From Acidobacteriaceae bacterium (GTDB lineage Bacteria; Acidobacteriota; Terriglobia; Terriglobales; Acidobacteriaceae), in assembly GCA_049518555.1 (NCBI GenBank), contig JBEKRR010000013.1, forward strand, positions 5,189 to 69,188: 64,000 bases of DNA, in the 5' to 3' direction. This document shows, piece by piece, positions 35,775-49,900 of this stretch; positions within the stretch are counted from its first letter, which is position 1, and each line of letters begins with the position of its first letter. The notes under the pieces were generated by a model that was given only the letters and a program-made list of their open reading frames with translations, did no database searches and was not told where the DNA came from. The translations under genes and the position numbers were made by a program.

Positions 35775-36566
35775 GTGAGCACCGCAGAAGCGGGAGAGCG
35801 TATGCAACCTACCATTCGGACGATCAAGCGACTTTGCGCCCTTTCGGATAATCGATGTGCCTTTGGAGGTTGCTCAACTCCCCTGGTGGACGATGAATCT
35901 GGAACCGTCACTGGCGTGATCTGCCACATCAAAGCGCAGCGGAAAGGCGGGCCGCGCTATGATCCAACTCAGTCGGAAACGGATCGGCAGGACTTTTCAA
36001 ACCTAATTATGTTATGCGCCACGCACCACAAAGTGGTAGACGCGGACGTAAAGCGGTTCACGGTCGAGTATTTACAGGAGATGAAGGAAAGACACAACTT
36101 AACCGGACGTAAGGAAGTCGAACCCATAGATGCTACGCGGGCTCAACTCCTCCTTCAGAACTACACGATCAGCGTACTGGGTCCGCTAACAGTCGGTACA
36201 ATTCACGCAGAAAATGTCACGATTAGCGGGAAACGGAACACGCGCCCCAAGATCGAACCACCACCGGATGTCATCGCAGGCAGTTCGGCGCACCGTCGCT
36301 ACGCACATCACTTGATTCAGCGGTACCAGTACTTTGCCAGCCGACAACCCGGGCGCATCTTTGGTCACGGGGCTGTATACAAGGCGATCGAGAGAAAATT
36401 TCGAGCAACTTGGGAATGGGTACCCCTCTCCCAGTTCGCAGAGTTCTCAGCTTTTATCCAAGAGAAAATCGACAGAACCCAACTCGGAAGAATCAATCGA
36501 AGCAAAGGTTTTAAGAACTACTCCTCATTTGAGCAGGAAGACAATAAGATTAAAGGCAAGTCTTGA
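35775..36566 (+). CDS. HNH-endonuclease-domain protein with an unknown C-terminal domain
   Basis: NRCAFGGC...CHIKAQRKGGPRYD...NLIMLCATHHKVVD; visibly AT-richer than the flanks; alternative ATG 35802. Confidence 0.7.
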   Translation: MSTAEAGERMQPTIRTIKRLCALSDNRCAFGGCSTPLVDDESGTVTGVICHIKAQRKGGPRYDPTQSETDRQDFSNLIMLCATHHKVVDADVKRFTVEYLQEMKERHNLTGRKEVEPIDATRAQLLLQNYTISVLGPLTVGTIHAENVTISGKRNTRPKIEPPPDVIAGSSAHRRYAHHLIQRYQYFASRQPGRIFGHGAVYKAIERKFRATWEWVPLSQFAEFSAFIQEKIDRTQLGRINRSKGFKNYSSFEQEDNKIKGKS

Positions 36567-37035: not shown

Positions 37036-37794
37036 CTACGCCAGCAGCACTTCGATGCCTTTGCCGCGCAGCAGTTCCACGTATTCGCCGTCGAGTTCGC
37101 TGTCGGAGACCACCGTATCGGCGTCCTCCAGCGGCCCCACCGGAATCATCGCGCCGCGGCCGAACTTGGTGTGGTCGGCGACGATGATCACCCGGCTGGC
37201 GATCTCGATCATCTTCTGCTCCGAGCCCACCACCAGCGTGTTGTTGTTGCTGAACCCGGCCTCGGTGACGCTGCCGATGCCCATGATAAGCACGTCGGCG
37301 CGGATCATGCCCAGCATCTGCTCGCACAGCGGCCCCAGCATGACGCGGAGGCGCGGGTCCAGATAGCCGCCGGTCAGCGTCAGTTCGATGTTGCGCCGCG
37401 CCTCCAGCGTCTCGGCGATGGGCAGCGAGTTGGTGACGATGTGCAGCGATTTTCCGGCAAGCTCTCCGGCGACAGCCGCAACGGTAGACCCGCCGTCCAG
37501 GATGACGGTCTGGCCGTCTTCAATCAGCCCGGCGGTAAGGCGCGCGATGCGGCCCTTCTCGTCGCTGAAGCGCCCGCTCTCCACGGTGAAGTCGAATGCG
37601 CCGTTGCCGGACGCGTGCACGGGAACCGCGCCGCCGTAAACTCGCCTGAGAACGCTCTCCGCCTCCAGCACGTCCAGGTCGCGGCGCACGCTGGACTCGG
37701 AGGCGTCGAGCTCGCGGCACAGGGTTTCCAGGTCGAGGAAGTCCTTGGCCTCGAACATCTGGCGGATTCTCAGTTGCCGTTCAGCAGCTTTCAT
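37036..37794 (-). CDS. DeoR/GlpR-family transcriptional regulator (last gene of the BMC operon)
   Basis: SESSVRRDLDVLE HTH, RRVYGGA, ILDGGSTV, IVTNSL, IIVADHTKFG. Confidence 0.93.
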   Translation of the reverse strand: MKAAERQLRIRQMFEAKDFLDLETLCRELDASESSVRRDLDVLEAESVLRRVYGGAVPVHASGNGAFDFTVESGRFSDEKGRIARLTAGLIEDGQTVILDGGSTVAAVAGELAGKSLHIVTNSLPIAETLEARRNIELTLTGGYLDPRLRVMLGPLCEQMLGMIRADVLIMGIGSVTEAGFSNNNTLVVGSEQKMIEIASRVIIVADHTKFGRGAMIPVGPLEDADTVVSDSELDGEYVELLRGKGIEVLLA

Positions 37795-37862
37795 CGTGCA
37801 GTGGCCGAGTGACGCGGGTTGCAGGAGGCATCCACATCTCTCAGCGTGCTCCCTTCACGGCT

Positions 37863-38963
37863 TTAGGATTCGCCCATGGCGCTCATCACCGCATCGGTGA
37901 CCATCTTCACCAGGCGGTCCATCTCCGGAGCGTCGGCAGTGATGCGGGTGGCGCCGTCTCTCTTGCATGGAAGCAGCGCAATGGAGTTGGGGGCTTCCAT
38001 GTCGGACAACTGGCACTCCTTCATCGCCGCAGGGTCGAAGCGCGAGTCCGGCAGACCGAGCTTCTTCTTGATGGCCAGCAGGTCGGTGGTTTGCCTCTCG
38101 GAGATCTGCGAGATGGGAACGCCCAGTTGCGACGCCAGGATCAGAGTATGGCAGTAGGTGTCCACCACTTCGGCGTACCACTCGGCGTGGGTGACGGTGT
38201 CTGCCCAGCAGATGATGCCGTGGTTGGAGAGCAGCACCGTATTGTGCTCGCGCACATAGGGAATCACGGTCTGCGCGAAGGCTGCCGTACCCGGCGTCTC
38301 GTAGGGCGAGATAGCGACCTTGCCGACGAAGACCTCGAACTCCGGGATGATCCCGTTGGGCGGGACGCGCCCGGTGATGGCGTACGCCGTCGCATGGGGC
38401 GGATGGCAGTGGACACAAGCCTTGGCCTCCGGCACAGCCTTGTAGATCTCCAGATGCAGAAATATCTCGCTGGTGCGCGGCTTGGTCCCGGCAATCTGAA
38501 CGCCGTCCAGATCCACCAGGCACATATCTTCCGGCGTCAGGTCCAGCTTGCTGAACAGGGTCGGCGTGCAGAGTACCTCGTTGGGCCCGATGCGATACGA
38601 GATGTTGCCGCCGTTGCCATCGACGTAGCCGCGGTTCCACAGCTTGCGGCCGACGGCGCAGATCTCCTTCTTGACCGCCTCGGCCTCCGGCGTGGAGAAG
38701 AGCCGCGGATTGGCGGGGCTGCGCGTCGCCTGCACGGGGCTGGCTGCGCTGCTCCGGCTGGTCGAAGCCGCAACCACAGCGCCCGGGCCCATTACAAGCT
38801 CAATCTCGTTTTGCCGCAGAAAGTCGCGGGCCGAAGGTGTGATGACGCAGCGCTCGCAGACCCGCACCTGGGTTGCCCCGGCGGCCTGCGCGCTCTGCGC
38901 ATCGCGCATTGCCAGAACATTCTGTCCGGTAAGTTCAATCGTTTTCACTTCGCCCTTCCTCAC
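37863..38963 (-). CDS. Class II aldolase (fuculose/rhamnulose-1-P-aldolase-like), BMC cargo with N- and C-terminal extensions
   Basis: GNGGNIS, RTSEIFLH, VHCHPPHATA, LSNHG; C-terminal EMDRLVKMVTDAVMSAM encapsulation-peptide-like helix. Confidence 0.88.
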   Translation of the reverse strand: MRKGEVKTIELTGQNVLAMRDAQSAQAAGATQVRVCERCVITPSARDFLRQNEIELVMGPGAVVAASTSRSSAASPVQATRSPANPRLFSTPEAEAVKKEICAVGRKLWNRGYVDGNGGNISYRIGPNEVLCTPTLFSKLDLTPEDMCLVDLDGVQIAGTKPRTSEIFLHLEIYKAVPEAKACVHCHPPHATAYAITGRVPPNGIIPEFEVFVGKVAISPYETPGTAAFAQTVIPYVREHNTVLLSNHGIICWADTVTHAEWYAEVVDTYCHTLILASQLGVPISQISERQTTDLLAIKKKLGLPDSRFDPAAMKECQLSDMEAPNSIALLPCKRDGATRITADAPEMDRLVKMVTDAVMSAMGES

Positions 38964-38986
38964 TGCCGCACCTCAGATTCTTCTTC

Positions 38987-39277
38987 CTATGACTTCCCTG
39001 TTGTGATGGAGTCGACGATCAACGTGCAATACGCATCCACCGGAGCTCGATTCGGCCAGAAAGGGTTCGCGGCCTCGGTGCCCTCGGTAAACGCCACCAT
39101 CTGGCCCCTGGCAGCGCCCAGCGCATCCACGGCGACCAGAGACTTGCCTCCGCCCAGGCCGTTTTTCGCCCGCAGGTTGGCCATCGTCACCGGCTCCAGC
39201 ACCACCAGCGTCAGGCCGAGCAGCTCCGGAACGGCTGGCGTCAGCGTGACGTGTCCGCGAACGATGCCCAGTCTCAT
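38987..39277 (-). CDS. BMC vertex (pentamer) protein, EutN/CcmL family
   Basis: MRLGIVRGHV..., AVDALGAARGQMV, PVDAYCTLIVD. Confidence 0.88.
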   Translation of the reverse strand: MRLGIVRGHVTLTPAVPELLGLTLVVLEPVTMANLRAKNGLGGGKSLVAVDALGAARGQMVAFTEGTEAANPFWPNRAPVDAYCTLIVDSITTGKS

Positions 39278-39552
39278 GCGGCCCTCCCTGTGCCCTGCAC
39301 CGGGTCCACGATTCCCACCACCACCATGCGGCCCGGCGTTGTGTTGCCGTAGCGCTCGCGCGCGATGTCGCCGTCGGTGGAGACCAGGACGGTGGAACCG
39401 AATGCCGCGCCCAGCAGGTCGATCAGGACCAGCGGCTCCGCGCCGGCGCTGCCGTCGGCCTCCAGCCGCTGGGCCACCAGAAAACGGCAGCCCTCCAGCG
39501 TGGCGTGCTTGGCCGCCGGAACTACCGTGCCGTCGATGCGGGCCAGAAACAT
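39274..39552 (-). CDS. BMC vertex (pentamer) protein, EutN/CcmL family
   Basis: MFLARIDGTVV..K...L.G, IDLLGAAFGSTVLV, VVVGIVD; ATG 2 bp after the AldDH stop. Confidence 0.9.
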   Translation of the reverse strand: MFLARIDGTVVPAAKHATLEGCRFLVAQRLEADGSAGAEPLVLIDLLGAAFGSTVLVSTDGDIARERYGNTTPGRMVVVGIVDPVQGTGRAA

Positions 39553-39554
39553 GG

Positions 39555-41024
39555 CTAGACGATCCTCAGTGCGCCACCGATGGTGAGCTGGCGCTCGCGG
39601 GTGAATGTCAGCGGCGTGGTGATGCCCTCGCCGGTCGGTGTCGCAATGCTGTGGCTCAGGTATCCCGGCCCGCCAAAGCCCAGCGACGCCAGCGACGAGG
39701 CGTTGCTGACGAAGATCGTCGTGTTCATGGCGCGCGCCATGCGCGTCACTGCGTCCACATCCTTCGAGTGAATCACTGCCGTGTGCCGGTAGCCGTGCTC
39801 CGCCTTCACCGCAGCCTTGATGCCCGCGTCCACGCACGACACGCGAACGATTGGGATGAACGGCATCATCTGCTCCTCGACGACGAAGGCATGGTCCTCG
39901 TTTGTCTCGCCGAAGAGGATCTGCGTGCTGGCCGGAACGGTCACCCCGGCCGCCGCTGCAAGCACTGCGACGTCCTTGCCGACCAGTTCCTTCTTCACAT
40001 GCGCGCGCGCGCATCCTTTGCCGTCGCCCTCGAAGGTGAAGGCGGCCTGCGTCAGCCGTTCGATTGCGGCCTTGTTCAACTCGAAGCCGCCCGCGCGGCG
40101 CATCGCATCCATGAACGCCGAGGCGATCGACGCGACCACGAAGACCTCTTTCTCGCCGATGCAGAGCAGGTTGTTGTCGAAGGCCCCGCCCTCGATGATG
40201 CACCGCGCGGCCAGGTCGAGGTCGGCGTTCTGGTCCACCACCACCGGCGGATTGCCCGGCCCGGCCGCAATCACGCGCTTGCCGAACTTGCTCGCCGCCT
40301 GCACCACCATCGGCCCGCCAGTGACGCACAACAGCGCGACCTTGGGATGCTGAAAGATCTCCCCAGCCGCTTCAATGCTGGGTTCCAGAATGGTGGTGAG
40401 CACGTTGGCCACGCCGCACTCGCTCTCGATCTCGCGGTTGAAGAGCTGCAACGCGAACTGCGAGACGCGCTTGCCCGACGGGTGCGGCGCAAAGATCGCC
40501 GTGTTGCCCGCGGCCAGAATGTTGATCGCGTTGGCGGCCATCGTCGGCACCGCGTGGGTGACGGGAAGCACCATGCCGATGACGCCCCAGGGTGCGTGTT
40601 CGATCAAAAGCAACCCGGACGAATCGCTGCGCGCCTCGCTGTGCATCGCCTCCACGCCCAGCACGTAGCGCATGTTTTTCAGCTTCTGAATCTTGTGGTC
40701 CAGCCGGCCCACCTTGGTCTCTTCCAGCTCCATCTTGCCCAGCTCTTCCGAGCGGTCGATGCAGATCCGCCGCACGATGGAGATCATGCGCCCGCGCTCT
40801 TCCAGGCTCATCTCCTCGACCTTCTTCTGTGCCACCTGCGCCGCGTTGACCGCCTCGTCCACGGTGAGGAAGACGCCGTCGTGCGCGTCCGCGCTGCTGG
40901 CATGTCTAGCGGATGCCGGCGCGCTGGCTGGCAACGGCACCGGCTGCGCCTGCTGCATCTGGGCGCGGAGCCGTGCCACAACCTCCCGCGCAATCTCCGC
41001 GATCACCTGTTCCTGGTTCGTCAT
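39555..41024 (-). CDS. CoA-acylating aldehyde dehydrogenase (PduP/EutE-like) with N-terminal encapsulation peptide
   Basis: APWGVIGMVLPVTH, VTGGPMVV, AAGPGNPPVVVD, FDNNLLCIGEKE, EEQMMP, EHGYRHTA, ATPTGEG; N-terminal EQVIAEIAREVVARL. Confidence 0.93.
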   Translation of the reverse strand: MTNQEQVIAEIAREVVARLRAQMQQAQPVPLPASAPASARHASSADAHDGVFLTVDEAVNAAQVAQKKVEEMSLEERGRMISIVRRICIDRSEELGKMELEETKVGRLDHKIQKLKNMRYVLGVEAMHSEARSDSSGLLLIEHAPWGVIGMVLPVTHAVPTMAANAINILAAGNTAIFAPHPSGKRVSQFALQLFNREIESECGVANVLTTILEPSIEAAGEIFQHPKVALLCVTGGPMVVQAASKFGKRVIAAGPGNPPVVVDQNADLDLAARCIIEGGAFDNNLLCIGEKEVFVVASIASAFMDAMRRAGGFELNKAAIERLTQAAFTFEGDGKGCARAHVKKELVGKDVAVLAAAAGVTVPASTQILFGETNEDHAFVVEEQMMPFIPIVRVSCVDAGIKAAVKAEHGYRHTAVIHSKDVDAVTRMARAMNTTIFVSNASSLASLGFGGPGYLSHSIATPTGEGITTPLTFTRERQLTIGGALRIV

Positions 41025-41044
41025 ACTTTCTCCAAGCCCATCAT

Positions 41045-41344
41045 TTACGGCTTCTCCAATATCTTGCCGTCGACCTCGACCGTATCCACGATGCCGACAA
41101 GCACCGCATCCACCGGCGCATCCTTGGTCGCCGGCGTCAGCCGCGCCGAGCTTCCCTGCGTAAACAACACGCACTCGCCGATTCCCGCGCCAACACTGTC
41201 AACCGCCACCACGGAGCTGCCGGAGATCTCCAGCCGGCCCTCCCGGTGGTTGATGTACGGCTGGACCAGCAGCAGCTTCATCCCACGGAACTTCTCGTTC
41301 TTCTGCGTGGAGACGACATTGCCGATTACTTTTGCGATAAACAT
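41045..41344 (-). CDS. BMC vertex (pentamer) protein, EutN/CcmL family
   Basis: MFIAKVIGNVVSTQK, VAVDSVGAGIGE, PVDAVLVGIVD. Confidence 0.95.
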   Translation of the reverse strand: MFIAKVIGNVVSTQKNEKFRGMKLLLVQPYINHREGRLEISGSSVVAVDSVGAGIGECVLFTQGSSARLTPATKDAPVDAVLVGIVDTVEVDGKILEKP

Positions 41345-41400
41345 GTCCGCTCACCTCATTGCGCCACGCAGGATTGTGCCCTGCGCGGCGTTCGCATCAG

Positions 41401-41673
41401 CTATTTCGGCAATACGGACCCCAGGCTGCTGTGCGGCCGCGCGATCACATGCACGCTCATCACCTCGCCGGCTTCCTTGGCGGCTGCCGCTCCCGCATCC
41501 ACCGCCGCGCGCACGCTGCCTACATCGCCTTGAACGAAGACCGAGCACAACCCGCTGCCAACCTTGTTCCATCCGACGAACTCGACGCTTGCCGCCTTCA
41601 GCATCGCGTCGGTGGCCTGCACCAGGGCTACCAGGCCCTTCGTCTCAATCATTCCAATCGCTTCATTGGCCAT
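41401..41673 (-). CDS. BMC hexamer shell protein (BMC-H)
   Basis: [41 protein letters not shown]. Confidence 0.96.
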
Positions 41674-41729
41674 TTCGTTTCTCCCAATCTTCCTAGTTCT
41701 GTAATTATCAGTGGCTCGTGTCCAATCCC

Positions 41730-41764
41730 TCGAACCTCGAACCTTGTACTTAGAACCTTGGTTC
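41730..41764. repeat. Degenerate intergenic heptamer array
   Basis: tcgaacc tcgaacc ttgtact tagaacc ttggttc. Confidence 0.5.
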
Positions 41765-41767
41765 GAC

Positions 41768-42037
41768 TTACTTCAGAAAGCTGTCGACCAGCGCATCGTG
41801 CGGACGCGCGATCACATGCGAGGCCACCAGTTCGCCGACTGCCTTGGCTGCGGCCGCTCCGGCATCCACGGCCGCGCGCACGCTGCCTACGTCTCCGCGC
41901 ACGATCGCGGTCACAAATCCTCCGCCAATCTGCACGGTCTTCACCAGCTCCACACTGGCAGCCTTCACCATCGCATCGCTTGCCTCGACCAGTCCGACGA
42001 GGCCCTTTGTTTCGATCAATCCAATTGCTTCACTCAT
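41768..42037 (-). CDS. BMC hexamer shell protein (BMC-H)
   Basis: [42 protein letters not shown]. Confidence 0.96.
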
Positions 42038-42078
42038 CTTGTCTCCTCTGCCCGCTGGGGCAATCTCTTCCGGTGGCT

Positions 42079-42125
42079 GGGTGCCCCATCCTTGTGGCGT
42101 ATTTGTCTTTGCCGCAAGGGTGGGA
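42079..42125. repeat. REP-like palindrome between BMC-H genes
   Basis: GGGTGCCC head; 14-bp stem cccatccttgtggc (42085-98) / gccgcaagggtggg (42111-24). Confidence 0.7.
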
Positions 42126-42133
42126 TGGCTCAG

Positions 42134-42427
42134 CTATTTCTTGATTGCGGCCTTCTTCTCCGCTTGCACGAAGGAGGGCAGCTCGTCGTGGGGGCGCGAG
42201 ATCACCTGAACGCTGACCACCTCGCCGATCCGCGATGCGGCTTCCGCGCCGGCATCGGTTGAGGCCTTCACCGCGGCCACGTCGCCTTCAACAAAGGCAG
42301 TGACCAGTCCCGACCCCACCGACTGCCAGCCGGTAAAGGTCACGTTTGCGGATTTCAGCATCGCGTCAGTCGCCTCGAACAGCGCGACCAAGCCCTTCGT
42401 TTCTATCATTCCAAGCGCTTGTTTCAT
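42134..42427 (-). CDS. BMC hexamer shell protein (BMC-H)
   Basis: ALGMIETKG, DAMLKSA, SVGSG, EGDVAAVKA, VISRPH. Confidence 0.96.
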   Translation of the reverse strand: MKQALGMIETKGLVALFEATDAMLKSANVTFTGWQSVGSGLVTAFVEGDVAAVKASTDAGAEAASRIGEVVSVQVISRPHDELPSFVQAEKKAAIKK

Positions 42428-42480
42428 CGAGTCCTCTCTTCTTCCTTCCGAATTGCTAAAACCCTTGATTCCCTGAAACC

Positions 42481-43185
42481 TTACTTCAGCAGTTCAATGT
42501 CCTTGGTCAGATGCAGGCCGCACGCATTGGCCTCGTCGGTGTCCATGTGGACGTTGAGCCGTGAGGTTGGGTCGATGCGGACGTGAACGTTGTTGAAGGT
42601 CGTGCTGGCCGCTCCGCCCACGCGCAGCTTCATCAGGTCGCCCTGCTTGACACCGAAGTAGGCTGCCTCGCCCGGGTTCATGTGCACGTGGATGGCCGCG
42701 CGAATGATGCCTTCCTTCAGTTCGATGTTGCCCTTCGGCCCCATGATGATCGCGCCCGGCGTTCCCGCGATGTTGCCGGAGAGACGCACCGGGATATCGT
42801 CGAAGCCCAGGCTGATGGCGTCGGTGAACGCCAGCTCCACCTGCGACTGCTTGCGCATCGGCCCCAGGATGCGCAGGTTGGAGATCAGGCGGCTGCGCGG
42901 TCCAATGATCGTCACCTTCTCGTTGGCGGCGAAGTTGCCCGCCTGGTACAGCTCCTTGTAGACCGTCAGCTCCGTGCCCGGCCCGAACAGAACGTCCATG
43001 TCCGCGCGGCAGATGTGCATGTGCCGCGCCGAGGCCAGCACGGTCAGCAACGGAGCTTCGCCGACTGCGCGGCCCGCGCCATCGCGGCCAAGATACTCCA
43101 ATGCGACTTGACGAACGATCTGCTCCACCACCGACCGGTCGATCGTTTGAGACGGTTTCGTTAGTGCTGCGCTTCCACTTGCCAT
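42481..43185 (-). CDS. pduL: PduL-family phosphotransacylase with N-terminal encapsulation peptide
   Basis: SARHMH, RILGPMR.QSQVE, PVRLSG, IRAAIHVHM, VHMDTDEANA; N-terminal RSVVEQIVRQVALEYL. Confidence 0.93.
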   Translation of the reverse strand: MASGSAALTKPSQTIDRSVVEQIVRQVALEYLGRDGAGRAVGEAPLLTVLASARHMHICRADMDVLFGPGTELTVYKELYQAGNFAANEKVTIIGPRSRLISNLRILGPMRKQSQVELAFTDAISLGFDDIPVRLSGNIAGTPGAIIMGPKGNIELKEGIIRAAIHVHMNPGEAAYFGVKQGDLMKLRVGGAASTTFNNVHVRIDPTSRLNVHMDTDEANACGLHLTKDIELLK

Positions 43186-43213
43186 AGTCTGACCTGACTC
43201 ACCACGCTCGGGT

Positions 43214-44398
43214 TCATCTCGCTGCTTCGATTGATTTCCCTATACCTTCCCGCTTCACTGCGCCCCGTTCGACAACGCTCACGGTGTCGCGCGCAACCAC
43301 ACTCTCTTCATCCGCCGGAACGATCAGCACCGTGACGGCGGAGGTCTTGCTGGAGATCACCTGCGCGGTGCGCGCCGCGCGGTTCACCGCCTCGTCGATC
43401 TCGATCTCGAAGGAGGCCAGGTTCCGGCACACCGCGGCGCGAGTCTCCCAACTGTTCTCGCCGATGCCGCCGGAGAAGCTGATCACGTCCACCCCGTCCA
43501 GCTCCAGCATGAACGCCCCAAGATAGTGGCGGATGGCGCGCACATACACATCCAGCGCAAGCCGCGCGCGGTGGCTGCCCGCCGCAGCCGCCTCTTCCAT
43601 GTCGCGCATGTCGCCGCTGGTGCCGCTGATCCCCGCCAGGCCGGACTGGCTGCCCAGAATGCGCGCCATCTCGTCCGGGCCAAAGTCCAGCTTCTTCATC
43701 ATGTACAGCACGGCGAAGGCGTCGATGTCGCCCACGCGATTGTTCTGCGGCAGGCCGGACTGCGGCGATGTGCCGAAGCTGGTGTCGATGGCCACCCCGT
43801 CGCGGAAGGCCGCAATGCTGGAGCTTCCTCCCAGATGGCAGGAGATGTGGCGCAGGTTGGGCTTATTGAACTGCTTGCGCACATTCTCGCTGGCCGCGCG
43901 ATGGCTCGCTCCGTGGAAGCCATAGCGGCGTATGCCGAACTCCGTGCGCCACTCGTACGGCACCGCGTAGGCGGTGGCAGCCTCGTCCAGCGATGCGTAG
44001 GGAATGGTCTCGAAGACCGCGACCAGAGGCACGCCGGGCAGTGCGTCGCGAAAGGCCTTCATGGCGGCGATATACGGAGGATTGTGCGCGGGCGCGAAGA
44101 AGGAGAAGGCGTCCATCGCCGCCAGCAGCTCGTCGTTCACCAGGCACGGGCCGGAGAGCGGGCCGGCATGAACCGCCTTGAATCCCACCGCTTCAATCTC
44201 CGACAGGCTCTTCAGCGCCTTGCCGGGGCCCACCACATCGGCAATGCACTTGCGGATCGCGGAGGGGTAGTCGGGACAATCGCCGCCGGGCTGCCCAATC
44301 CGTTCCACCCGTCCATTGGCCAACACCGTCTCCTCCGGCATCTTCAGCACGCGGTACTTGAAGGACGTGCTGCCGATATTGGGGATCAGACATATCAT
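43214..44398 (-). CDS. ackA: Acetate/propionate-family kinase (BMC-associated)
   Basis: NIGSTSFKY, APAHNPP, RRYGFHGASH, CHLGG, RVGDID, GGIGEN, ADEE. Confidence 0.9.
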   Translation of the reverse strand: MICLIPNIGSTSFKYRVLKMPEETVLANGRVERIGQPGGDCPDYPSAIRKCIADVVGPGKALKSLSEIEAVGFKAVHAGPLSGPCLVNDELLAAMDAFSFFAPAHNPPYIAAMKAFRDALPGVPLVAVFETIPYASLDEAATAYAVPYEWRTEFGIRRYGFHGASHRAASENVRKQFNKPNLRHISCHLGGSSSIAAFRDGVAIDTSFGTSPQSGLPQNNRVGDIDAFAVLYMMKKLDFGPDEMARILGSQSGLAGISGTSGDMRDMEEAAAAGSHRARLALDVYVRAIRHYLGAFMLELDGVDVISFSGGIGENSWETRAAVCRNLASFEIEIDEAVNRAARTAQVISSKTSAVTVLIVPADEESVVARDTVSVVERGAVKREGIGKSIEAAR

Positions 44399-44562
44399 CG
44401 TGACGAACGATTCAGTTTGGCGAACTGCATTGCAGCGCAGCGGAATGCATTCCGTAGTGACAAACTACATATTGCACCAGTTGTTACTACGGACTAAGTT
44501 AACGATGAACTACTAACTGATAAGTCCGCCAAACTACCAATTCTGACGGACTATGAACGTTC

Positions 44563-44607
44563 TTGACTGCATAAAAACCATATCGTATATTGACTGTCAG
44601 AGTCAAT
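44563..44607. promoter_or_regulatory. Overlapping divergent sigma70 promoters and operator palindrome of the BMC locus
   Basis: Plus strand: TTGACT(44563)-N17-TATATT(44586). Minus strand: TTGACT(44606)-N18-TATGGT(44582). Palindrome ATTGACT-N5-AGTCAAT at 44589-44607. Confidence 0.6.
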
Positions 44608-44640
44608 CAGAATCGTGAACGACTTTGAGGATTTCGCCCG

Positions 44641-45993
44641 ATGGCACCAGAGGCAGGTGGAGCGCTAATGGCTGCGGCCAAAGGTAGATCGCAACCGATG
44701 ACCCCAGCTCGCGTGGGCGAGCTGGGCATTGTGGGCGCAGGTGGCGGGGGATTTCCCACGGCGGTGAAGCTGGGGACGCGCGTGCCGCTGGTGATCGCCA
44801 ATGCGGCTGAGTGCGAGCCGCTGCTGCACAAGGACAAGGAGCTGCTGCACCACCTCTCCGAGCCGTTCCTGCGCGGCATGATCGCGGCCATGGAGATGGT
44901 GGGCGCGCCGCAGGGCGTCATCGGCATCAAGGAGAAGTACCACGACATCATCGCCGCGATGGAGCAGCAGACGCCCAAAAACATCCGCGTCGCGCTGCTG
45001 CCGGACGCCTACCCGGCGGGCGACGAGTTCATCCTGGTCCACATCGTCACCGGCCGCGTCATCCCTCCCGGCGGGCTGCCCAAGGACGTGGACGCAATGG
45101 TGGCCAACATCGAGACCCTGATGAACATTGGGCTGGACCAGCCGGTGACCGAGAAGTATCTCACCGTCGCCGGCGCGGTGCGCAACCCCATCACGTTGCG
45201 CGTGCCCATCGGCATCACCATCGGCGAGGTGATCGAAGCCGCGGGCGGAGCAACGGTCGGCGACTTCAGCGTGCTGCTGGGCGGCGTGATGATGGCGCGT
45301 CCCGCCGCTGGTCTAGACGTTCCTGTCACCAAGACGACCGGCGGCATTGTCGTTCTACCCTCCTCGCACAAGCTGATCGAACGCCACGCCGCCAAGTGGC
45401 CGGTGATTGCGCGCGTCGGCCGCTCGGCCTGCGACCAGTGCCGCTTCTGCACGGAGTTTTGCCCGCGCTATTTGCTGGGCCATCCCATCCAGCCGCACCG
45501 CGCCATGCAGTCGCTGGGCTTCAGCCCCAGCCCGGCGGAGATCGTCGCCGGCACGCTCTACTGTTGCGAGTGCAACCTGTGCAGCCTGTACGCCTGCCCG
45601 GAGGACCTCGACCCCAAGAACGTCTGCGTGCAGTCCAAGCCCGCGGCGCGCGCCAACGGGCTCTTCTTCACCGGAACGCCGGAGTCGGTGACGCCGCATC
45701 CCATGGCGGACTACCGCCGCGTGCCCATGTCGCGCCTGATCTCGCGGCTGGGGCTCTCCGAGTTCCACAACGTCGGCCCGCTGACCGAACACAGCTTCTC
45801 GCCCAGCCGCGTCACTCTGCCGTTGAAGCAGCACGCGGGCGCGCCTGCGGTTGCGGTGGTCAAGACGGGACAAAAGGTGAACGTGGGCGACCTGCTGGCC
45901 GCACCCGAGGAGGGCAAGCTGGGAGCGCGCATCCACGCCAGCATTCGCGGCGTGGCGCGGCTCACGCACGACTCGGTGGTGATCGATGCATAG
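44641..45993 (+). CDS. pduS: PduS/RnfC-like Fe-S flavoprotein (NADH-binding, SLBB, 2x[4Fe-4S])
   Basis: GIVGAGGGGFPT, NAAECEPLL, YPAGDE, CDQCRFCTEFCPRYLLGH, CCECNLCSLYACP, C-terminal LKQHAGAP barrel (PduS domain order); alternative ATG 44668. Confidence 0.88.
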   Translation: MAPEAGGALMAAAKGRSQPMTPARVGELGIVGAGGGGFPTAVKLGTRVPLVIANAAECEPLLHKDKELLHHLSEPFLRGMIAAMEMVGAPQGVIGIKEKYHDIIAAMEQQTPKNIRVALLPDAYPAGDEFILVHIVTGRVIPPGGLPKDVDAMVANIETLMNIGLDQPVTEKYLTVAGAVRNPITLRVPIGITIGEVIEAAGGATVGDFSVLLGGVMMARPAAGLDVPVTKTTGGIVVLPSSHKLIERHAAKWPVIARVGRSACDQCRFCTEFCPRYLLGHPIQPHRAMQSLGFSPSPAEIVAGTLYCCECNLCSLYACPEDLDPKNVCVQSKPAARANGLFFTGTPESVTPHPMADYRRVPMSRLISRLGLSEFHNVGPLTEHSFSPSRVTLPLKQHAGAPAVAVVKTGQKVNVGDLLAAPEEGKLGARIHASIRGVARLTHDSVVIDA

Positions 45994-46046
45994 CTCGAAT
46001 CGGACTGGCTTGACGCGTAAGACGAAGCTCGGAAGGAGCCAACCTC

Positions 46047-46607
46047 GTGGCTGATATTCAATCGATCGGACTCATCGAACTCTCCAGCGTTGCCACCGGC
46101 TATCAGGTTGAGGACGTGATGTTGAAGGCCGCCAAGGTCCAGGTCCTGATGGCGCGCAGCATCTGCTCCGGCAAGTTTCTGATCGCCATCGCCGGCGACG
46201 TGGCATCAGTGACCACCGCAGTAGAGGCGGGAGGCGCTGCCGCTGGCGCTTCGCTCATCGAGCGGCGTCAGATCGCCCGCGTCCACCCCTCCGTGCTTCA
46301 TGCCATCTCGCAATCCGTGGAGATCAACCCCTCGCAATTGCGCTCCATCGGCGTCATCGAGACATTTTCCGCGTCGAGCATCATCGACGCAGCGGACGCG
46401 GCCGTCAAGTCCGCCAACGTCACCCTGCTACGCGTCCATCTGGCAATGGCCCTGGGCGGCAAGGGCTTTATGCTGATGGCGGGCGATGTATCCAGCGTGC
46501 AGGCCGCCGTCGAAGCCGGATCGAAGGCCGCCGCCGAAGAAGGAATGCTCGTCTCCCGCGGAGTGATTCCCGCGCCCTCCGAGGAGCTCTTCCGCGATTA
46601 CATCTGA
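46047..46607 (+). CDS. pduT: Tandem-domain shell protein (BMC-T), PduT-like with pore Cys
   Basis: SIGLIELSSVATG, MLKAA, RSICSGKF (PduT ICPGK), second domain SIGVIETFS...LGGKG. Confidence 0.9.
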   Translation: MADIQSIGLIELSSVATGYQVEDVMLKAAKVQVLMARSICSGKFLIAIAGDVASVTTAVEAGGAAAGASLIERRQIARVHPSVLHAISQSVEINPSQLRSIGVIETFSASSIIDAADAAVKSANVTLLRVHLAMALGGKGFMLMAGDVSSVQAAVEAGSKAAAEEGMLVSRGVIPAPSEELFRDYI

Positions 46608-46663
46608 GCCTCGTTGCTGAAGCCGGACCATGCGCGTCCGCGCGGACCTCGAATGGGGCCAGC

Positions 46664-46706
46664 AGTGATATATGTCACATCCAGCGCCTCTCTCTCCATC
46701 TACATT
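46664..46706 (+). promoter_or_regulatory. CRP/FNR-family (or Rex-like) box with -10 in class II geometry, upstream of pntAA
   Basis: AGTGA-tatatg-TCACA (46664-79); TACATT at 46701-06 places the box centre at about -41.5. Confidence 0.55.
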
Positions 46707-46917
46707 AAGTGTCAACATCCGTTTTTTCAGGCAATAACGCCGCGTTGGGGCAGCTTCCGGCGACAACTCAGTTCGGGCAGCGTAGTAGGATAGAAGGAAC
46801 AGGAGCTTCAATCTTGCAACCGGCTGCAAGCTCACGCCGGAACTGTGCAAACCATCTGTAACCGGCCCCCGATGGCCGGTTGGACCGTGCGAGCCTGACC
46901 GGCTTGGAGGAAATGTC

Positions 46918-48078
46918 TTGCGCCTTGCTATTGTGAAGGAAGCAGCCGTTGGAGAGACCCGTGTTGCGCTGCTTCCCGACGCCGTAAAGAAGCTGATCGC
47001 CAATGGCCTTGAGGTTGCGGTGGAAGCCGGCGCGGGAGTGAAGTCGGGGATTCTCGACGAGGCGTACGCGCAGGCCGGAGCGACGCTGGCGACCGATCGC
47101 GCCGCGCTTCTCGCCTCCGCCGACATCCTGCCCGTGGTCAACGCGCCCCCGGCCGAGGACCAGCGCAAGATCAAGCCCGGCTGCGTTGTGATCGGCTTTC
47201 TGCGTCCGCTGGACAACCCCTCCGCGCTGCTTCCGGCCATCGAGACTGGGGTCACGCTGTTCTCTGTCGAGCTGGTGCCGCGCATCACGCGCGCGCAGGC
47301 CATGGACGCGCTGTCGTCAATGGCCACCGTCGCCGGCTACAAGGCGGTGATTCTGGCCGCCGACACGCTGCCGCGACTCTTCCCCATGCTGATGACCGCG
47401 GCGGGGACCATTGCGCCGGCGCGGGTCTTTGTGATCGGAGCAGGAGTTGCGGGCCTGCAGGCGATCGCCACCGCGCGCCGCCTGGGCGCCGTGGTGGAGG
47501 CGTACGACGTACGCGCCGCCGCGGGCGAGCAGGTGCGGTCGCTGGGCGCGAAGTTCCTGGATGTGGACCTGGGCGGACTTGCCACCGAAGACAAGGGAGG
47601 CTACGCCAAGGAGCTGAGCGAAGAGGCGCTCGACCGTGGCCGCGACCTGATCGCCAAGACCGCCAAGACCGCCGACGTCATCATCACCACCGCGCAGGTT
47701 CCCGGCCGGCCCGCTCCGCTGCTGTTGCGCCGCGATGCGGTGGAGAACATGCGTCCCGGCACGGTGCTGGTGGACCTGGCAGCCGCTGGCGGCGGAAACT
47801 GCGAGCTGACCAAGCCGGGCGAGACCCAGGTGCACAACGGAGTGACTCTGCTTGCCCCGCTCAATCTGCCGGCCGCCGTTCCCGGCCACGCCAGCCAGCT
47901 CTACTCGCGCAACATCTCCAACTTCCTCGCCCTCATCGTCAAGGACGGCGCGCTCCACCTCAACATGGAGGACGAGATTCTCAGCGGCTCCTGCGTGGCC
48001 CATCAGGCCAAGGTCGTCAATCCGCGCGTGGCTTCGGCACTGGAAGCCGCGGCGGGCAGTCAAACAGTTTCGCAATAA
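46918..48078 (+). CDS. pntAA: NAD(P) transhydrogenase subunit alpha part 1 (dI)
   Basis: KE...GETRVAL.P, PRITRAQAMDALSS, GAGVAGLQAIATA, GGYAKE; TTG start with SD GGAGG. Confidence 0.95.
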   Translation: MRLAIVKEAAVGETRVALLPDAVKKLIANGLEVAVEAGAGVKSGILDEAYAQAGATLATDRAALLASADILPVVNAPPAEDQRKIKPGCVVIGFLRPLDNPSALLPAIETGVTLFSVELVPRITRAQAMDALSSMATVAGYKAVILAADTLPRLFPMLMTAAGTIAPARVFVIGAGVAGLQAIATARRLGAVVEAYDVRAAAGEQVRSLGAKFLDVDLGGLATEDKGGYAKELSEEALDRGRDLIAKTAKTADVIITTAQVPGRPAPLLLRRDAVENMRPGTVLVDLAAAGGGNCELTKPGETQVHNGVTLLAPLNLPAAVPGHASQLYSRNISNFLALIVKDGALHLNMEDEILSGSCVAHQAKVVNPRVASALEAAAGSQTVSQ

Positions 48079-48091
48079 ACCCGAGAGGCCT

Positions 48092-48418
48092 ATGAATCCT
48101 GCTGTTCTGATCGCTTCGGTCTACGTCTTCGCTCTCGCCGCCTTCCTGGGCTACCAGGTCATCAGCCGCGTGCCGCCCCTGCTGCATACGCCGCTGATGT
48201 CGGCGACCAATGCCATCAGCGGCATCTCGCTGATCGGCTCGCTGGTTCTGGCCGGGGCCACTCACTCGCCAGTTGCGCACATTCTGGGCTTTATCGCCGT
48301 CACCGCATCCACCATCAACGTGGTCGGCGGATTCGGCATCACCGACCGCATGCTGAAGATGTTCGGCAAGCGCAAGGACGAGGGGAAGAAGGCGCCTGCC
48401 GCGGGGGCGTCCCAATGA
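48092..48418 (+). CDS. pntAB: NAD(P) transhydrogenase subunit alpha part 2
   Basis: VPPLLHTPLMSATNAISG, INVVGGFGITDRMLKMF. Confidence 0.95.
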   Translation: MNPAVLIASVYVFALAAFLGYQVISRVPPLLHTPLMSATNAISGISLIGSLVLAGATHSPVAHILGFIAVTASTINVVGGFGITDRMLKMFGKRKDEGKKAPAAGASQ

Positions 48419-49794
48419 GCCTCACTTCCTACTTCATGGAAGCGACTTACCTGGTCGCCTCCATCCTCTTCGTACTCGCCTTGAAGGGCATGTCTCATCC
48501 GGAGACGGCGCGGCGCGGAATGTTCATGGCCGAGGGCGGAATGTTCATGGCCATCGTCGGCACGCTGATTGGCGCGCACATCGTCACCTGGGAATGGATC
48601 CTCGTGGGGCTCACCATCGGCTCCATCATCGGCATATGGATGGCGCTCTTCGTTCCCATGACCTCGATGCCGCAGCGGACCGCGCTATCCCACGCCTTTG
48701 GCGCCTTGGCGGCTGCGCTGGTCGGCGTCGGCGAGTTCATCATCCGCGGCTCGGAGATGACCGTCGTCACGCGCGGCGCACTGGGATTTGAAGTCATGCT
48801 GGGCGCGCTCACCACCACCGGCTCGCTCATCGCGGCGGGCAAGCTGCACGGCACCATCCCTGGCAAACCCATCCAGTTCCGCGGCCAGAACGCCATCAAC
48901 CTGGTCATCTTTCTCATCATGACGGGCAGCTTCGTCTACTTCTGGATGCACCCCTCCGTCATCGCGGCCTTCTACACCATGCTGGGCGTGGCGTTCGTCT
49001 TCGGCGTCATGCTGGTCATCCCCATCGGCTCGGCAGACATGCCCGTCGTCATGTCGCTGTTGAACAGCTACGCCGGCCTGGCCGCAGCCGCCACCGGCTT
49101 CGTGCTAGGCAACAACGTCCTGATCATCGCCGGCACGCTGGACGGCTTCTCCGGCTTCATCCTGTCGGTGCTGATGTGCAAGGCGATGAACCGGTCCATC
49201 ACCAACGTGCTCTTCGGCGGCTTCGGCGCGGTTATCGCCACGGCCTCAACCAACGTCGGCGGAGTGATGCGCGAGATTACGCTGGACGACGCGGCCATGC
49301 AGCTTGCCTTTGCCAACCGCGTCATCTTCGTCCCCGGCTACGGCCTTGCCACCGCCCAGGCGCAGCACGCCGTGCGCGAGCTGGGCGAGTTGCTGGAGTC
49401 GCGCGGCGTCACCGTCAAGTACGCCATCCATCCCGTCGCCGGACGCATGCCCGGACACATGAACGTGCTTCTGGCCGAGGCCAACGTCCCCTACTCGCAG
49501 CTCTACGAGATGGAGCAGATCAACCCCGAATTCCCCTCCACCGATGTGGCCGTCGTGATCGGCGCCAACGACGTCGTCAATCCCGACGCGCGCGACAATC
49601 CCAACTCGCTCATCGCCGGTATGCCCATTCTGGAAGTGGACCGCGCCAAGAGCGTCATCGTGCTCAAACGCGGCCAGGGGCGCGGCTTCTCCGGGCTGGA
49701 GAACCCGCTCTTCTTCAAGTCCAACACCAACATGCTCTACGGCGACGCCAAGAGCACCCTCAGCCACCTCGCCCAGGCCGTGCAGCACGTCTGA
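48415..49794 (+). CDS. pntB: NAD(P) transhydrogenase subunit beta
   Basis: TSMPQ..ALSHAFG, IGSADMPVV.SLLNSYAG, PGYGLA.AQAQ, HPVAGRMPGHMNVLLAEA, GANDVVNP. Confidence 0.97.
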   Translation: MSLTSYFMEATYLVASILFVLALKGMSHPETARRGMFMAEGGMFMAIVGTLIGAHIVTWEWILVGLTIGSIIGIWMALFVPMTSMPQRTALSHAFGALAAALVGVGEFIIRGSEMTVVTRGALGFEVMLGALTTTGSLIAAGKLHGTIPGKPIQFRGQNAINLVIFLIMTGSFVYFWMHPSVIAAFYTMLGVAFVFGVMLVIPIGSADMPVVMSLLNSYAGLAAAATGFVLGNNVLIIAGTLDGFSGFILSVLMCKAMNRSITNVLFGGFGAVIATASTNVGGVMREITLDDAAMQLAFANRVIFVPGYGLATAQAQHAVRELGELLESRGVTVKYAIHPVAGRMPGHMNVLLAEANVPYSQLYEMEQINPEFPSTDVAVVIGANDVVNPDARDNPNSLIAGMPILEVDRAKSVIVLKRGQGRGFSGLENPLFFKSNTNMLYGDAKSTLSHLAQAVQHV

Positions 49795-49900
49795 TCGGCG
49801 CCTATTCTGAAGGAATGCAGCCGGGTGGCGCGTTCTTCTTGAGTTAAAGACAATACTGCGTTTCACTGATTGCGTCTTCCGTGTTGCGCGGAAGACGTTT

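Follow-up and report, generated by a model that had tools for sequence, protein, structure and literature searches.

The 64,000-nucleotide window of an Acidobacteriaceae genome analysed here (contig JBEKRR010000013.1 of assembly GCA_049518555.1) harbours a bacterial microcompartment (BMC) locus that is probably a metabolosome of the Planctomycetes/Verrucomicrobia metabolosome (PVM) lineage, devoted to the catabolism of a 6-deoxyhexose of the L-fucose/L-rhamnose type and recycling its NAD+ by electron export. The gene inventory drawn up in a first-pass annotation of the window, namely an 11-gene minus-strand operon, a divergent PduS-PduT pair and then pntAA/AB/B, agrees with Pfam and NCBIfam searches and with independent gene calls on identical metagenome contigs (Table 1). 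All reading frames of the locus are intact, catalytic residues are retained, and the genes are spaced by 0–100 bp, which leaves no space for a hidden gene in the operon. The same annotation placed the locus in the aldolase-driven PVM lineage, and this placement stands: the orthologous locus of the Acidobacteriaceae strain SbA5 was typed PVM (main) in the 2021 catalogue of BMC loci. Its suggestion of an undescribed subtype does not hold, as SbA5 is already catalogued and the BMC type MIC4 has the same enzyme set, which essentially amounts to an exact match with described systems. The locus adds one more representative to a type already catalogued and relies on a cofactor-recycling module known from the literature; no new principle emerges from it.

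A PVM metabolosome is said to have been described in Planctopirus (Planctomyces) limnophila by Erbilgin and colleagues in 2014. As defined (Axen 2014, PMC4207490; Sutter 2021, PMC8217296), the type comprises an aldolase, PvmJ, PvmB, PvmG, a DeoR regulator, two BMC-H proteins (PvmD/E), a BMC-P triplet (PvmH/K/M), PvmL and PvmO, where PvmL is a flavoprotein and PvmO an Ldh-like protein and the presumed NAD+ recycler. The window contains the core of this set, with an aldehyde dehydrogenase (AldDH; PvmJ), a PduL-type phosphotransacylase (PTAC; PvmB), an acetate kinase (PvmG) and DeoR, together with BMC-H proteins and a BMC-P triplet in which PvmH is recognised by the label of its SbA5 orthologue and PvmK and PvmM by gene position. 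In the tree files of the catalogue (Sutter 2021), 'Ca. Sulfotelmatomonas gaucii' SbA5 is represented by SBA5_100014 (T_pdut) and SBA5_100021 (pvmH), with bmcType PVM (main), and in the published tree the SbA5 pentamer is basal to the Verrucomicrobia pvmH clade, its best hidden Markov model (HMM) being the true pvmH. The SbA5 contig was recovered among the relatives (L067) with a gene order identical to that of the window; the seven-gene gap from SBA5_100014 to SBA5_100021 fits the succession PduT, PduS, AckA, PduL, BMC-H, BMC-H, BMC-H and BMC-P exactly, and the first BMC-P (41045-41344) is 83% identical to the SbA5 protein. The three BMC-P are 33–39% identical in pairs, the third being 33–34% identical to the other two, while the three BMC-H share 55–64% identity and carry the canonical K-A/S-A-N/S and (A/S)RPH interface motifs.

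The signature enzyme is the class II aldolase, for which the frame 37863-38963 proposed earlier is correct and an open reading frame (ORF) at 37855-38640 is spurious. Across 40 orthologues its E166, H185, H187 and H248 do not vary; these are metal and acid-base residues of the FucA type, and the fold of the predicted core matches FucA and YgbL structures. The protein is laid out as an N-terminal domain (residues ~8-58), a linker, the core (100-274), a linker of ~40 residues and a C-terminal amphipathic helix (345-364), which in the AlphaFold2 (AF2) model follows low-confidence or disordered sequence and may be read as an encapsulation peptide (EP). In PVM aldolases the C-terminal EP lies behind a linker of 23-81 residues (PMC4594438), and the AF2 model of the PF00596 signature enzyme here likewise has a C-terminal helix after a linker. 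The AldDH scores 565 bits against PRK15398, the EutE/PduP-like subfamily (cut-off 403); it starts at MTNQEQ (489 aa), as a longer ORF reaching 41174 overlaps the neighbouring gene, and its putative N-terminal EP, QEQVIAEIAREVVARLRAQ, is followed by a Pro/Ala/Ser linker. PduL, with the putative N-terminal EP DRSVVEQIVRQVALEYL, matches the PduL structure 5CUO, and the PDB search returned R. palustris PduL only. In the literature EPs are placed N-terminally on AldDH and PTAC and C-terminally on the aldolase, and the terminal amphipathic helices of all three enzymes lie at these positions; the three are accordingly candidates for encapsulation. AckA carries no terminal extension and is therefore presumably cytosolic.

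The arrangement is widely shared among relatives. An aldolase scan with one genome per species yielded 287 relatives, of which the best 80 were examined, all belonging to Acidobacteriota; AckA, PduL, AldDH, aldolase, PduS and PduT occur in the same arrangement in 58 of these 80 loci, which cannot be put down to chance, and the remaining 22 lie mostly on contigs that end early. In 41 of the 58 complete loci the gene immediately downstream of the aldolase is a DeoR orthologue. When the flanking ORFs of 43 full-length loci were all clustered, no further conserved gene and no dehydrogenase emerged. In 13 loci (L022:12051-12680 and 12 others of Terracidiphilus type) DeoR is directly followed by a gene of ~214 aa starting MRIDNHDVLIVTDVQNDFCPGG, which by eye resembles the isochorismatase/nicotinamidase family.

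The nearest relatives are Acidobacteriaceae/Granulicella metagenome-assembled genomes from peat and bog, with aldolase identities of up to 97%, and the host had thus been correctly described as Acidobacterium-like. Within the family the distribution is patchy. In an even sample of Acidobacteriaceae the full-length, BMC-type aldolase was present in 6 of 401 genomes, and a further 24, plus one intermediate, had a 55–64%-identical aldolase without the first ~70-85 residues. Shell genes accompanied the full-length enzyme in all five genomes besides the window's own; zero shell genes were found in any of 13 cases tested with the short aldolase, and no BMC gene or domain was found in any of 24 other sampled genomes of the window's own genus. 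This pattern suggests horizontal transfer or frequent loss. PVM-type organelles are consequently not confined to Planctomycetes and Verrucomicrobia and occur patchily in Acidobacteriaceae of peat and bog, a family of major plant-polymer degraders. The 58 species-level genomes with complete synteny constitute a large natural set of metabolosomes free of alcohol dehydrogenase.

The absence of a co-encoded alcohol or lactate dehydrogenase, remarked on in the first-pass annotation, was upheld, as none other than AldDH was found in the locus or the flanks within the window. The annotation also held that NAD(H) must be rebalanced by a route other than such a dehydrogenase, and this agrees with the PduS/PduT pair beside the operon in 58 loci and with a published mechanism; the route need not be regarded as unexplained. 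The pair, renamed MNdh/BMC-T^SE, has been studied in vitro with the Clostridium botulinum proteins, where NADH is oxidised, the electrons pass out through the shell and NAD+ is regenerated (Sutter et al., PNAS 2024; PMC11626177). The same survey counted 361 loci with MNdh/BMC-T^SE but no alcohol dehydrogenase and 1,725 with both systems; in PVM loci it recorded 20 occurrences of the pair, 18 of them in satellites (PMC11626177). The PduS of the window has the expected architecture (PF01512, PF10531, a 4Fe-4S dicluster and PF13375), with the BMC-T only 53 bp away. Its GAGGGGFP and CDQCRFCTEFC motifs are invariant in 34 orthologues, and a second cluster motif can be read as CCECNLCSLYAC. The best NCBIfam match of PduT is TIGR02526 eut_PduT, below the cut-off; its pore cysteine lies in an ICSGK motif, of which C-S-G-K is invariant in 33 loci. 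Electron export through PduS/PduT is the best-supported recycling route here, because relatives keep the pore cysteine and the first PduS cluster motif without variation and the alcohol, lactate and malate dehydrogenases of the genome are devoid of extensions.

The sugar is indicated by the company kept by the closest shell-less orthologues of the aldolase. In L101 the order is aldolase, kinase, isomerase, aldehyde dehydrogenase and permease; most of this order recurs in L097 and L098, there with a divergent DeoR. The DeoR of the window is 47.6% identical to the DeoR of these operons. Annotation of the L097/L101 proteins gave a RhaB-like kinase (435 bits), an isomerase of the FucI superfamily, an aldehyde dehydrogenase matching the lactaldehyde dehydrogenase AldA (798 bits, cut-off 500) and a permease matching FucP (379 bits, cut-off 280). 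Such a context of FucP, RhaB-like kinase and AldA points to a 6-deoxyhexose pathway in which the aldolase product would be lactaldehyde, and it supports a fucose/rhamnose-type substrate. In the window's own genome, too, contig C147 has the kinase and isomerase genes, C28 one that is AldA-like and C18 one that is FucP-like, and no second aldolase except AraD was found in this genome. Its sole PF02952 match, on C91, belongs to the FucI superfamily, is of uncertain specificity and neighbours an SSS transporter. This isomerase-like protein (C91:7554-9068) contains an exact tandem duplication of 16 residues (PNMQALLRYICQNGFE twice) near its C-terminus.

From these elements a pathway may be proposed. 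The sugar would be taken up by the FucP-like permease and converted in the cytosol by the FucI-superfamily isomerase and the RhaB-like kinase, all encoded elsewhere in the genome. Inside a shell built from the three BMC-H, the PvmH/K/M-like BMC-P triplet and the BMC-T, the encapsulated aldolase would split the ketose-1-phosphate into dihydroxyacetone phosphate and L-lactaldehyde, the EP-tagged AldDH would turn lactaldehyde, CoA and NAD+ into lactyl-CoA and NADH, and the EP-tagged PduL would convert lactyl-CoA into lactyl-phosphate, thereby recycling CoA. AckA, probably outside the shell, would then form lactate and ATP from lactyl-phosphate. The NADH would be oxidised by MNdh docked on the lumenal face of BMC-T^SE, two electrons leaving via the 4Fe-4S clusters and the pore cluster to a cytosolic acceptor. 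Promoter-like consensus matches lie on both strands of the divergent intergenic region (TTGACT-17-TATATT at 44563-44591 on the plus strand; 44606-44577 on the minus strand), and DeoR may repress both divergent operons until sugar phosphate builds up.

Several observations weigh against this reconstruction. Neither PvmO nor PvmL of the PVM definition is present in the locus. The aldolase reaches no NCBIfam equivalog cut-off (OtnC is best at 122 bits, FucA follows at 94 bits), which is why the substrate is drawn from the context of its orthologues. RhaA (PF06134) was not found in the window's genome, and the contig with the kinase and isomerase, C147, is a 2.6-kb fragment. The pore cysteine is present, yet its motif is C-S-G-K, where Ser replaces the Pro of the published CP(G/S)K, and two loci with sufficient upstream sequence, L070 and L012, have no adjacent PduS/PduT. 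Finally, the shell-less aldolases (L097:8234-9169, L098:8306-9235, L100:8584-9573, L101:8322-9281 and L102:8132-9085) have an N-terminal amphipathic helix, for example LDPSHIASIVRRAVLDCL, and a C-terminal linker with an EP-like helix, for example EIDQLIHKLTADLLAFL, so that a terminal helix alone is no proof of encapsulation. The helices may be left over from an organelle since lost, or may serve self-association independently of a shell. In the aldolase tree the BMC and shell-less groups separate with 99/100 support; since the only outgroup is a distant AraD and PVM sequences from Verrucomicrobia are absent, that tree does not reveal which group is ancestral.

A dehydrogenase encoded elsewhere could in principle take over the recycling. 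The genome, 98% complete, encodes one iron-containing alcohol dehydrogenase (Fe-ADH; C17), one L-lactate dehydrogenase (L-LDH; C16) and one malate dehydrogenase, and none of the three shows an N- or C-terminal extension; a tagged dehydrogenase outside the locus, which the first-pass annotation had named as evidence against its view, was thus not encountered. When ~2,300 ORFs of the genome were scanned by regular expression for termini resembling EPs, PduL was the sole known cargo picked up, and the scan is too crude to argue against hidden cargo. An untagged enzyme (Fe-ADH, L-LDH or another reductase) might still piggy-back into the shell and turn half of the lactaldehyde into 1,2-propanediol, with PduS/PduT as an accessory. 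Piggy-backing of EP-less alcohol dehydrogenases is accepted in the literature, and the 1,725 catalogued loci with both systems (PMC11626177), as well as L070 and L012, would fit. We nevertheless regard this as unlikely: apart from the lack of extensions on Fe-ADH and LDH, Fe-ADH lies beside a sigma-54-type regulator on another contig, and the flanks of the 43 loci share no conserved dehydrogenase, while PduS/PduT is kept in 58 with invariant cluster ligands.

The aldehyde, too, could be a different one. The aldolase may act on another ketose-1-phosphate, such as 5-deoxyribulose-1-phosphate with acetaldehyde as product, or on a tetronate-type substrate, and its best fold and NCBIfam matches do include OtnC/YgbL and a 5-deoxyribose-pathway aldolase; the missing RhaA points the same way. 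Alternatively the main source could be a second aldolase acting on a 2-keto-3-deoxy sugar acid. Outside the window the genome contains a satellite (C9:19311-20929) with a DHDPS-family class I aldolase of 338 aa. The enzyme shows the Schiff-base lysine motif GIKDSSG, its C-terminal helix DKLEQIVYKVVHEIKNRG is conserved and EP-like, and a tandem-domain BMC-T without pore cysteine follows directly. The neighbours of this aldolase in one relative are an FGGY kinase, an MFS transporter and a dehydrogenase of the Iso_dh family. Both versions appear quite improbable, the first in view of the closest non-BMC orthologues of the aldolase (55–64% identity) and of DeoR, which reside in operons with FucP, RhaB-like kinase and AldA, and the second because the five further BMC-bearing genomes in the family sample do not have the satellite, which so cannot be the core signature enzyme.

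The satellite rather looks like a portable add-on module. Aldolase and BMC-T are paired in 5 of 5 genomic places examined, which represent two distinct homologues; close homologues come under the names Bryobacteraceae and Sulfopaludibacter, and a sample of 100 other genomes of Acidobacteriaceae yielded none. The satellite BMC-T has been gene-called from an ATG that drops its first beta-strand (C9:20324-20372; L103:9026-9074; L105:9014-9062). The 15 in-frame codons upstream of this ATG encode the conserved BMC residues ALAxxEIGGWSPA, and a conserved CTG overlaps the aldolase stop codon (CTGA), a pattern that suggests a non-canonical, translationally coupled start.

The pntAA/AB/B genes, which encode a proton-translocating NAD(P) transhydrogenase, are probably a neighbour and not a component of the BMC, and their adjacency is likely to be coincidental. 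It is very unlikely that PntAB drains exported reducing equivalents into NADPH and so defines a distinct redox-coupled subtype: pntAA begins 310 bp past PduT on the same strand, with no terminator detected between them and a strong one after pntB (49872-49898), and the adjacency recurs in L001, L005, L008 and L009, but it is confined to 5 of ~62 loci, all of them nearest relatives, and in L003 pnt lies on the opposite side, ~4.6 kb beyond DeoR. Being limited to the closest relatives and in one case to the other side, the adjacency speaks for an inherited neighbourhood and not for functional coupling, and PntAB was rejected as a BMC component for want of conservation. Furthermore, the reaction of PntAB is a hydride exchange of free NAD(H) with NADP(H), and the enzyme is not known to accept electrons from an Fe-S pore.

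The N-terminal domain of the aldolase (window 38790-38963 for residues 1-58) is predicted by AF2 with good confidence as a beta-alpha-beta-alpha-beta unit at residues ~8-58, and it carries an invariant T-P-x-A-x-D-F-L motif. Among the sampled Acidobacteriaceae it is restricted to genomes with shell genes. No second protein in the window's genome carries such a domain, a fold search gave no PDB match at E<=1e-3, and a word-indexed search returned close aldolases only. An exhaustive profile search of 1.8 billion representatives revealed the domain, with a T-P-x-A-R-D motif, also in RpiB-like proteins with N-terminal EPs, one of which has a match to PF02502, the family of the SPU signature enzyme, and furthermore, in C-terminal position, in ~220-aa proteins that bear EPs and match no Pfam family. 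Its presence in other kinds of EP-bearing proteins indicates a recurrent cargo-associated module, probably with a docking role.

Table 1. Features of the BMC locus and of the adjoining pnt genes in the window.
Feature	Position	Strand	Basis
DeoR-family regulator (HTH_DeoR and DeoRC sensor domain)	37036-37794	-	Pfam
Class II (metal-dependent) aldolase, 366 aa, signature enzyme	37863-38963	-	PF00596 E=1.7e-46
BMC-P pentamer, third of triplet, PvmM position	38987-39277	-	PF03319
BMC-P pentamer, second of triplet, PvmK position, 92 aa	39274-39552	-	PF03319 and gene call
CoA-acylating AldDH, 489 aa	39555-41024	-	PF00171 and PRK15398
BMC-P pentamer, first of triplet, PvmH orthologue	41045-41344	-	PF03319 E=4.6e-30
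BMC-H hexamer	41401-41673	-	PF00936
BMC-H hexamer	41768-42037	-	PF00936
BMC-H hexamer	42134-42427	-	PF00936
PduL-type phosphotransacylase	42481-43185	-	PF06130 E=6e-66; PRK15070 above cut-off
AckA, acetate/propionate-family kinase, PvmG equivalent	43214-44398	-	PF00871 E=2.5e-90; TIGR00016 above cut-off
Divergent intergenic region, 242 bp, promoter-like sites on both strands	44399-44640	.	consensus matches only
PduS-like NADH dehydrogenase (MNdh)	44641-45993	+	Pfam: Nuo51 FMN/NADH, SLBB, 4Fe-4S dicluster, RnfC_N
PduT-like tandem-BMC-domain trimer (BMC-T^SE)	46047-46607	+	two PF00936 domains
pntAA	46918-48078	+	Pfam
pntAB	48092-48418	+	Pfam
pntB	48415-49794	+	Pfam

Between the BMC operon and a gene of the metallo-beta-lactamase fold, an ORF at 35775-36566 has a sub-threshold match to HNH_2 (E=0.003) and was also gene-called on the identical metagenome contigs.

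Among the catalogued systems, the ACI type of Acidobacteria (subdivisions 4 and 6, Solibacter/Bryobacterales) shares with the locus the phylum, an aldolase with C-terminal EP and the BMC-P triplet; PduS/PduT is occasional in ACI and a 'Ts_mud/T_pvm' BMC-T occurs as a satellite. However, the ACI main locus contains a 2-hydroxyacid dehydrogenase and proteins of unknown function and has AldDH on a satellite, whereas here AldDH, PduL and AckA belong to the main operon and no hydroxyacid dehydrogenase is found. Membership in ACI was thus rejected on the absence of a PF00389/PF02826 dehydrogenase from the locus and on AldDH being inside the main operon.

The inventory of MIC4 (and MUF3) is the same as that of the window, with an AldDH bearing an N-terminal EP, PTAC, PF00596, PF00871, the BMC-P triplet and an in-operon PduS with a Cys-pore PduT, and all of these elements lie together in the locus described here. 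The PduT entry of SbA5 is also near the MIC4 and FRAG8 PduT entries in the published BMC-T tree file. The reported hosts of MIC4 are nevertheless Actinobacteria, Bacteroidetes, Calditrichaeota, KSB1, Firmicutes and Ignavibacteriae, not Acidobacteria, and HMM typing in the catalogue puts the acidobacterial orthologue in PVM. With the MNdh/BMC-T^SE systems the locus has in common the four-domain PduS, the adjoining tandem BMC-T with pore cysteine, AldDH and the lack of an alcohol dehydrogenase, and it departs from them in its pore motif. Should the locus be present in a cultured strain of Granulicella or Terracidiphilus, the export model would be open to testing in vivo.

The likeness to PVM extends from the aldolase with C-terminal EP, the acylating AldDH, PduL, acetate kinase, DeoR and the BMC-P triplet to local gene order, P-AldDH-P-P-aldolase mirroring PvmH-J-K-(L)-M-N. 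The differences are the lack of PvmL and PvmO, three BMC-H instead of two, PduS/PduT in the main locus where PVM has it mostly in satellites, the extra N-terminal domain of the aldolase, and a host in Acidobacteriaceae while the catalogue text limits PVM to Planctomycetes and Verrucomicrobia. It is conceivable, though we would put it forward only tentatively, that the Acidobacteriaceae loci form an undescribed PVM sub-lineage fully dependent on electron export, marked by MNdh/BMC-T^SE in the main locus, the lack of both PvmO and PvmL, a third BMC-H and a docking domain on the aldolase, and that the shell in this genome is also fed by the horizontally acquired, EP-tailed DHDPS-type aldolase and its BMC-T. 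If so, it would be a two-substrate organelle without an alcohol by-product. What the locus adds to the literature is modest and consists of the patchy spread in Acidobacteriaceae, the consistent loss of PvmL and PvmO together with a main-locus MNdh, the satellite module and the aldolase domain.

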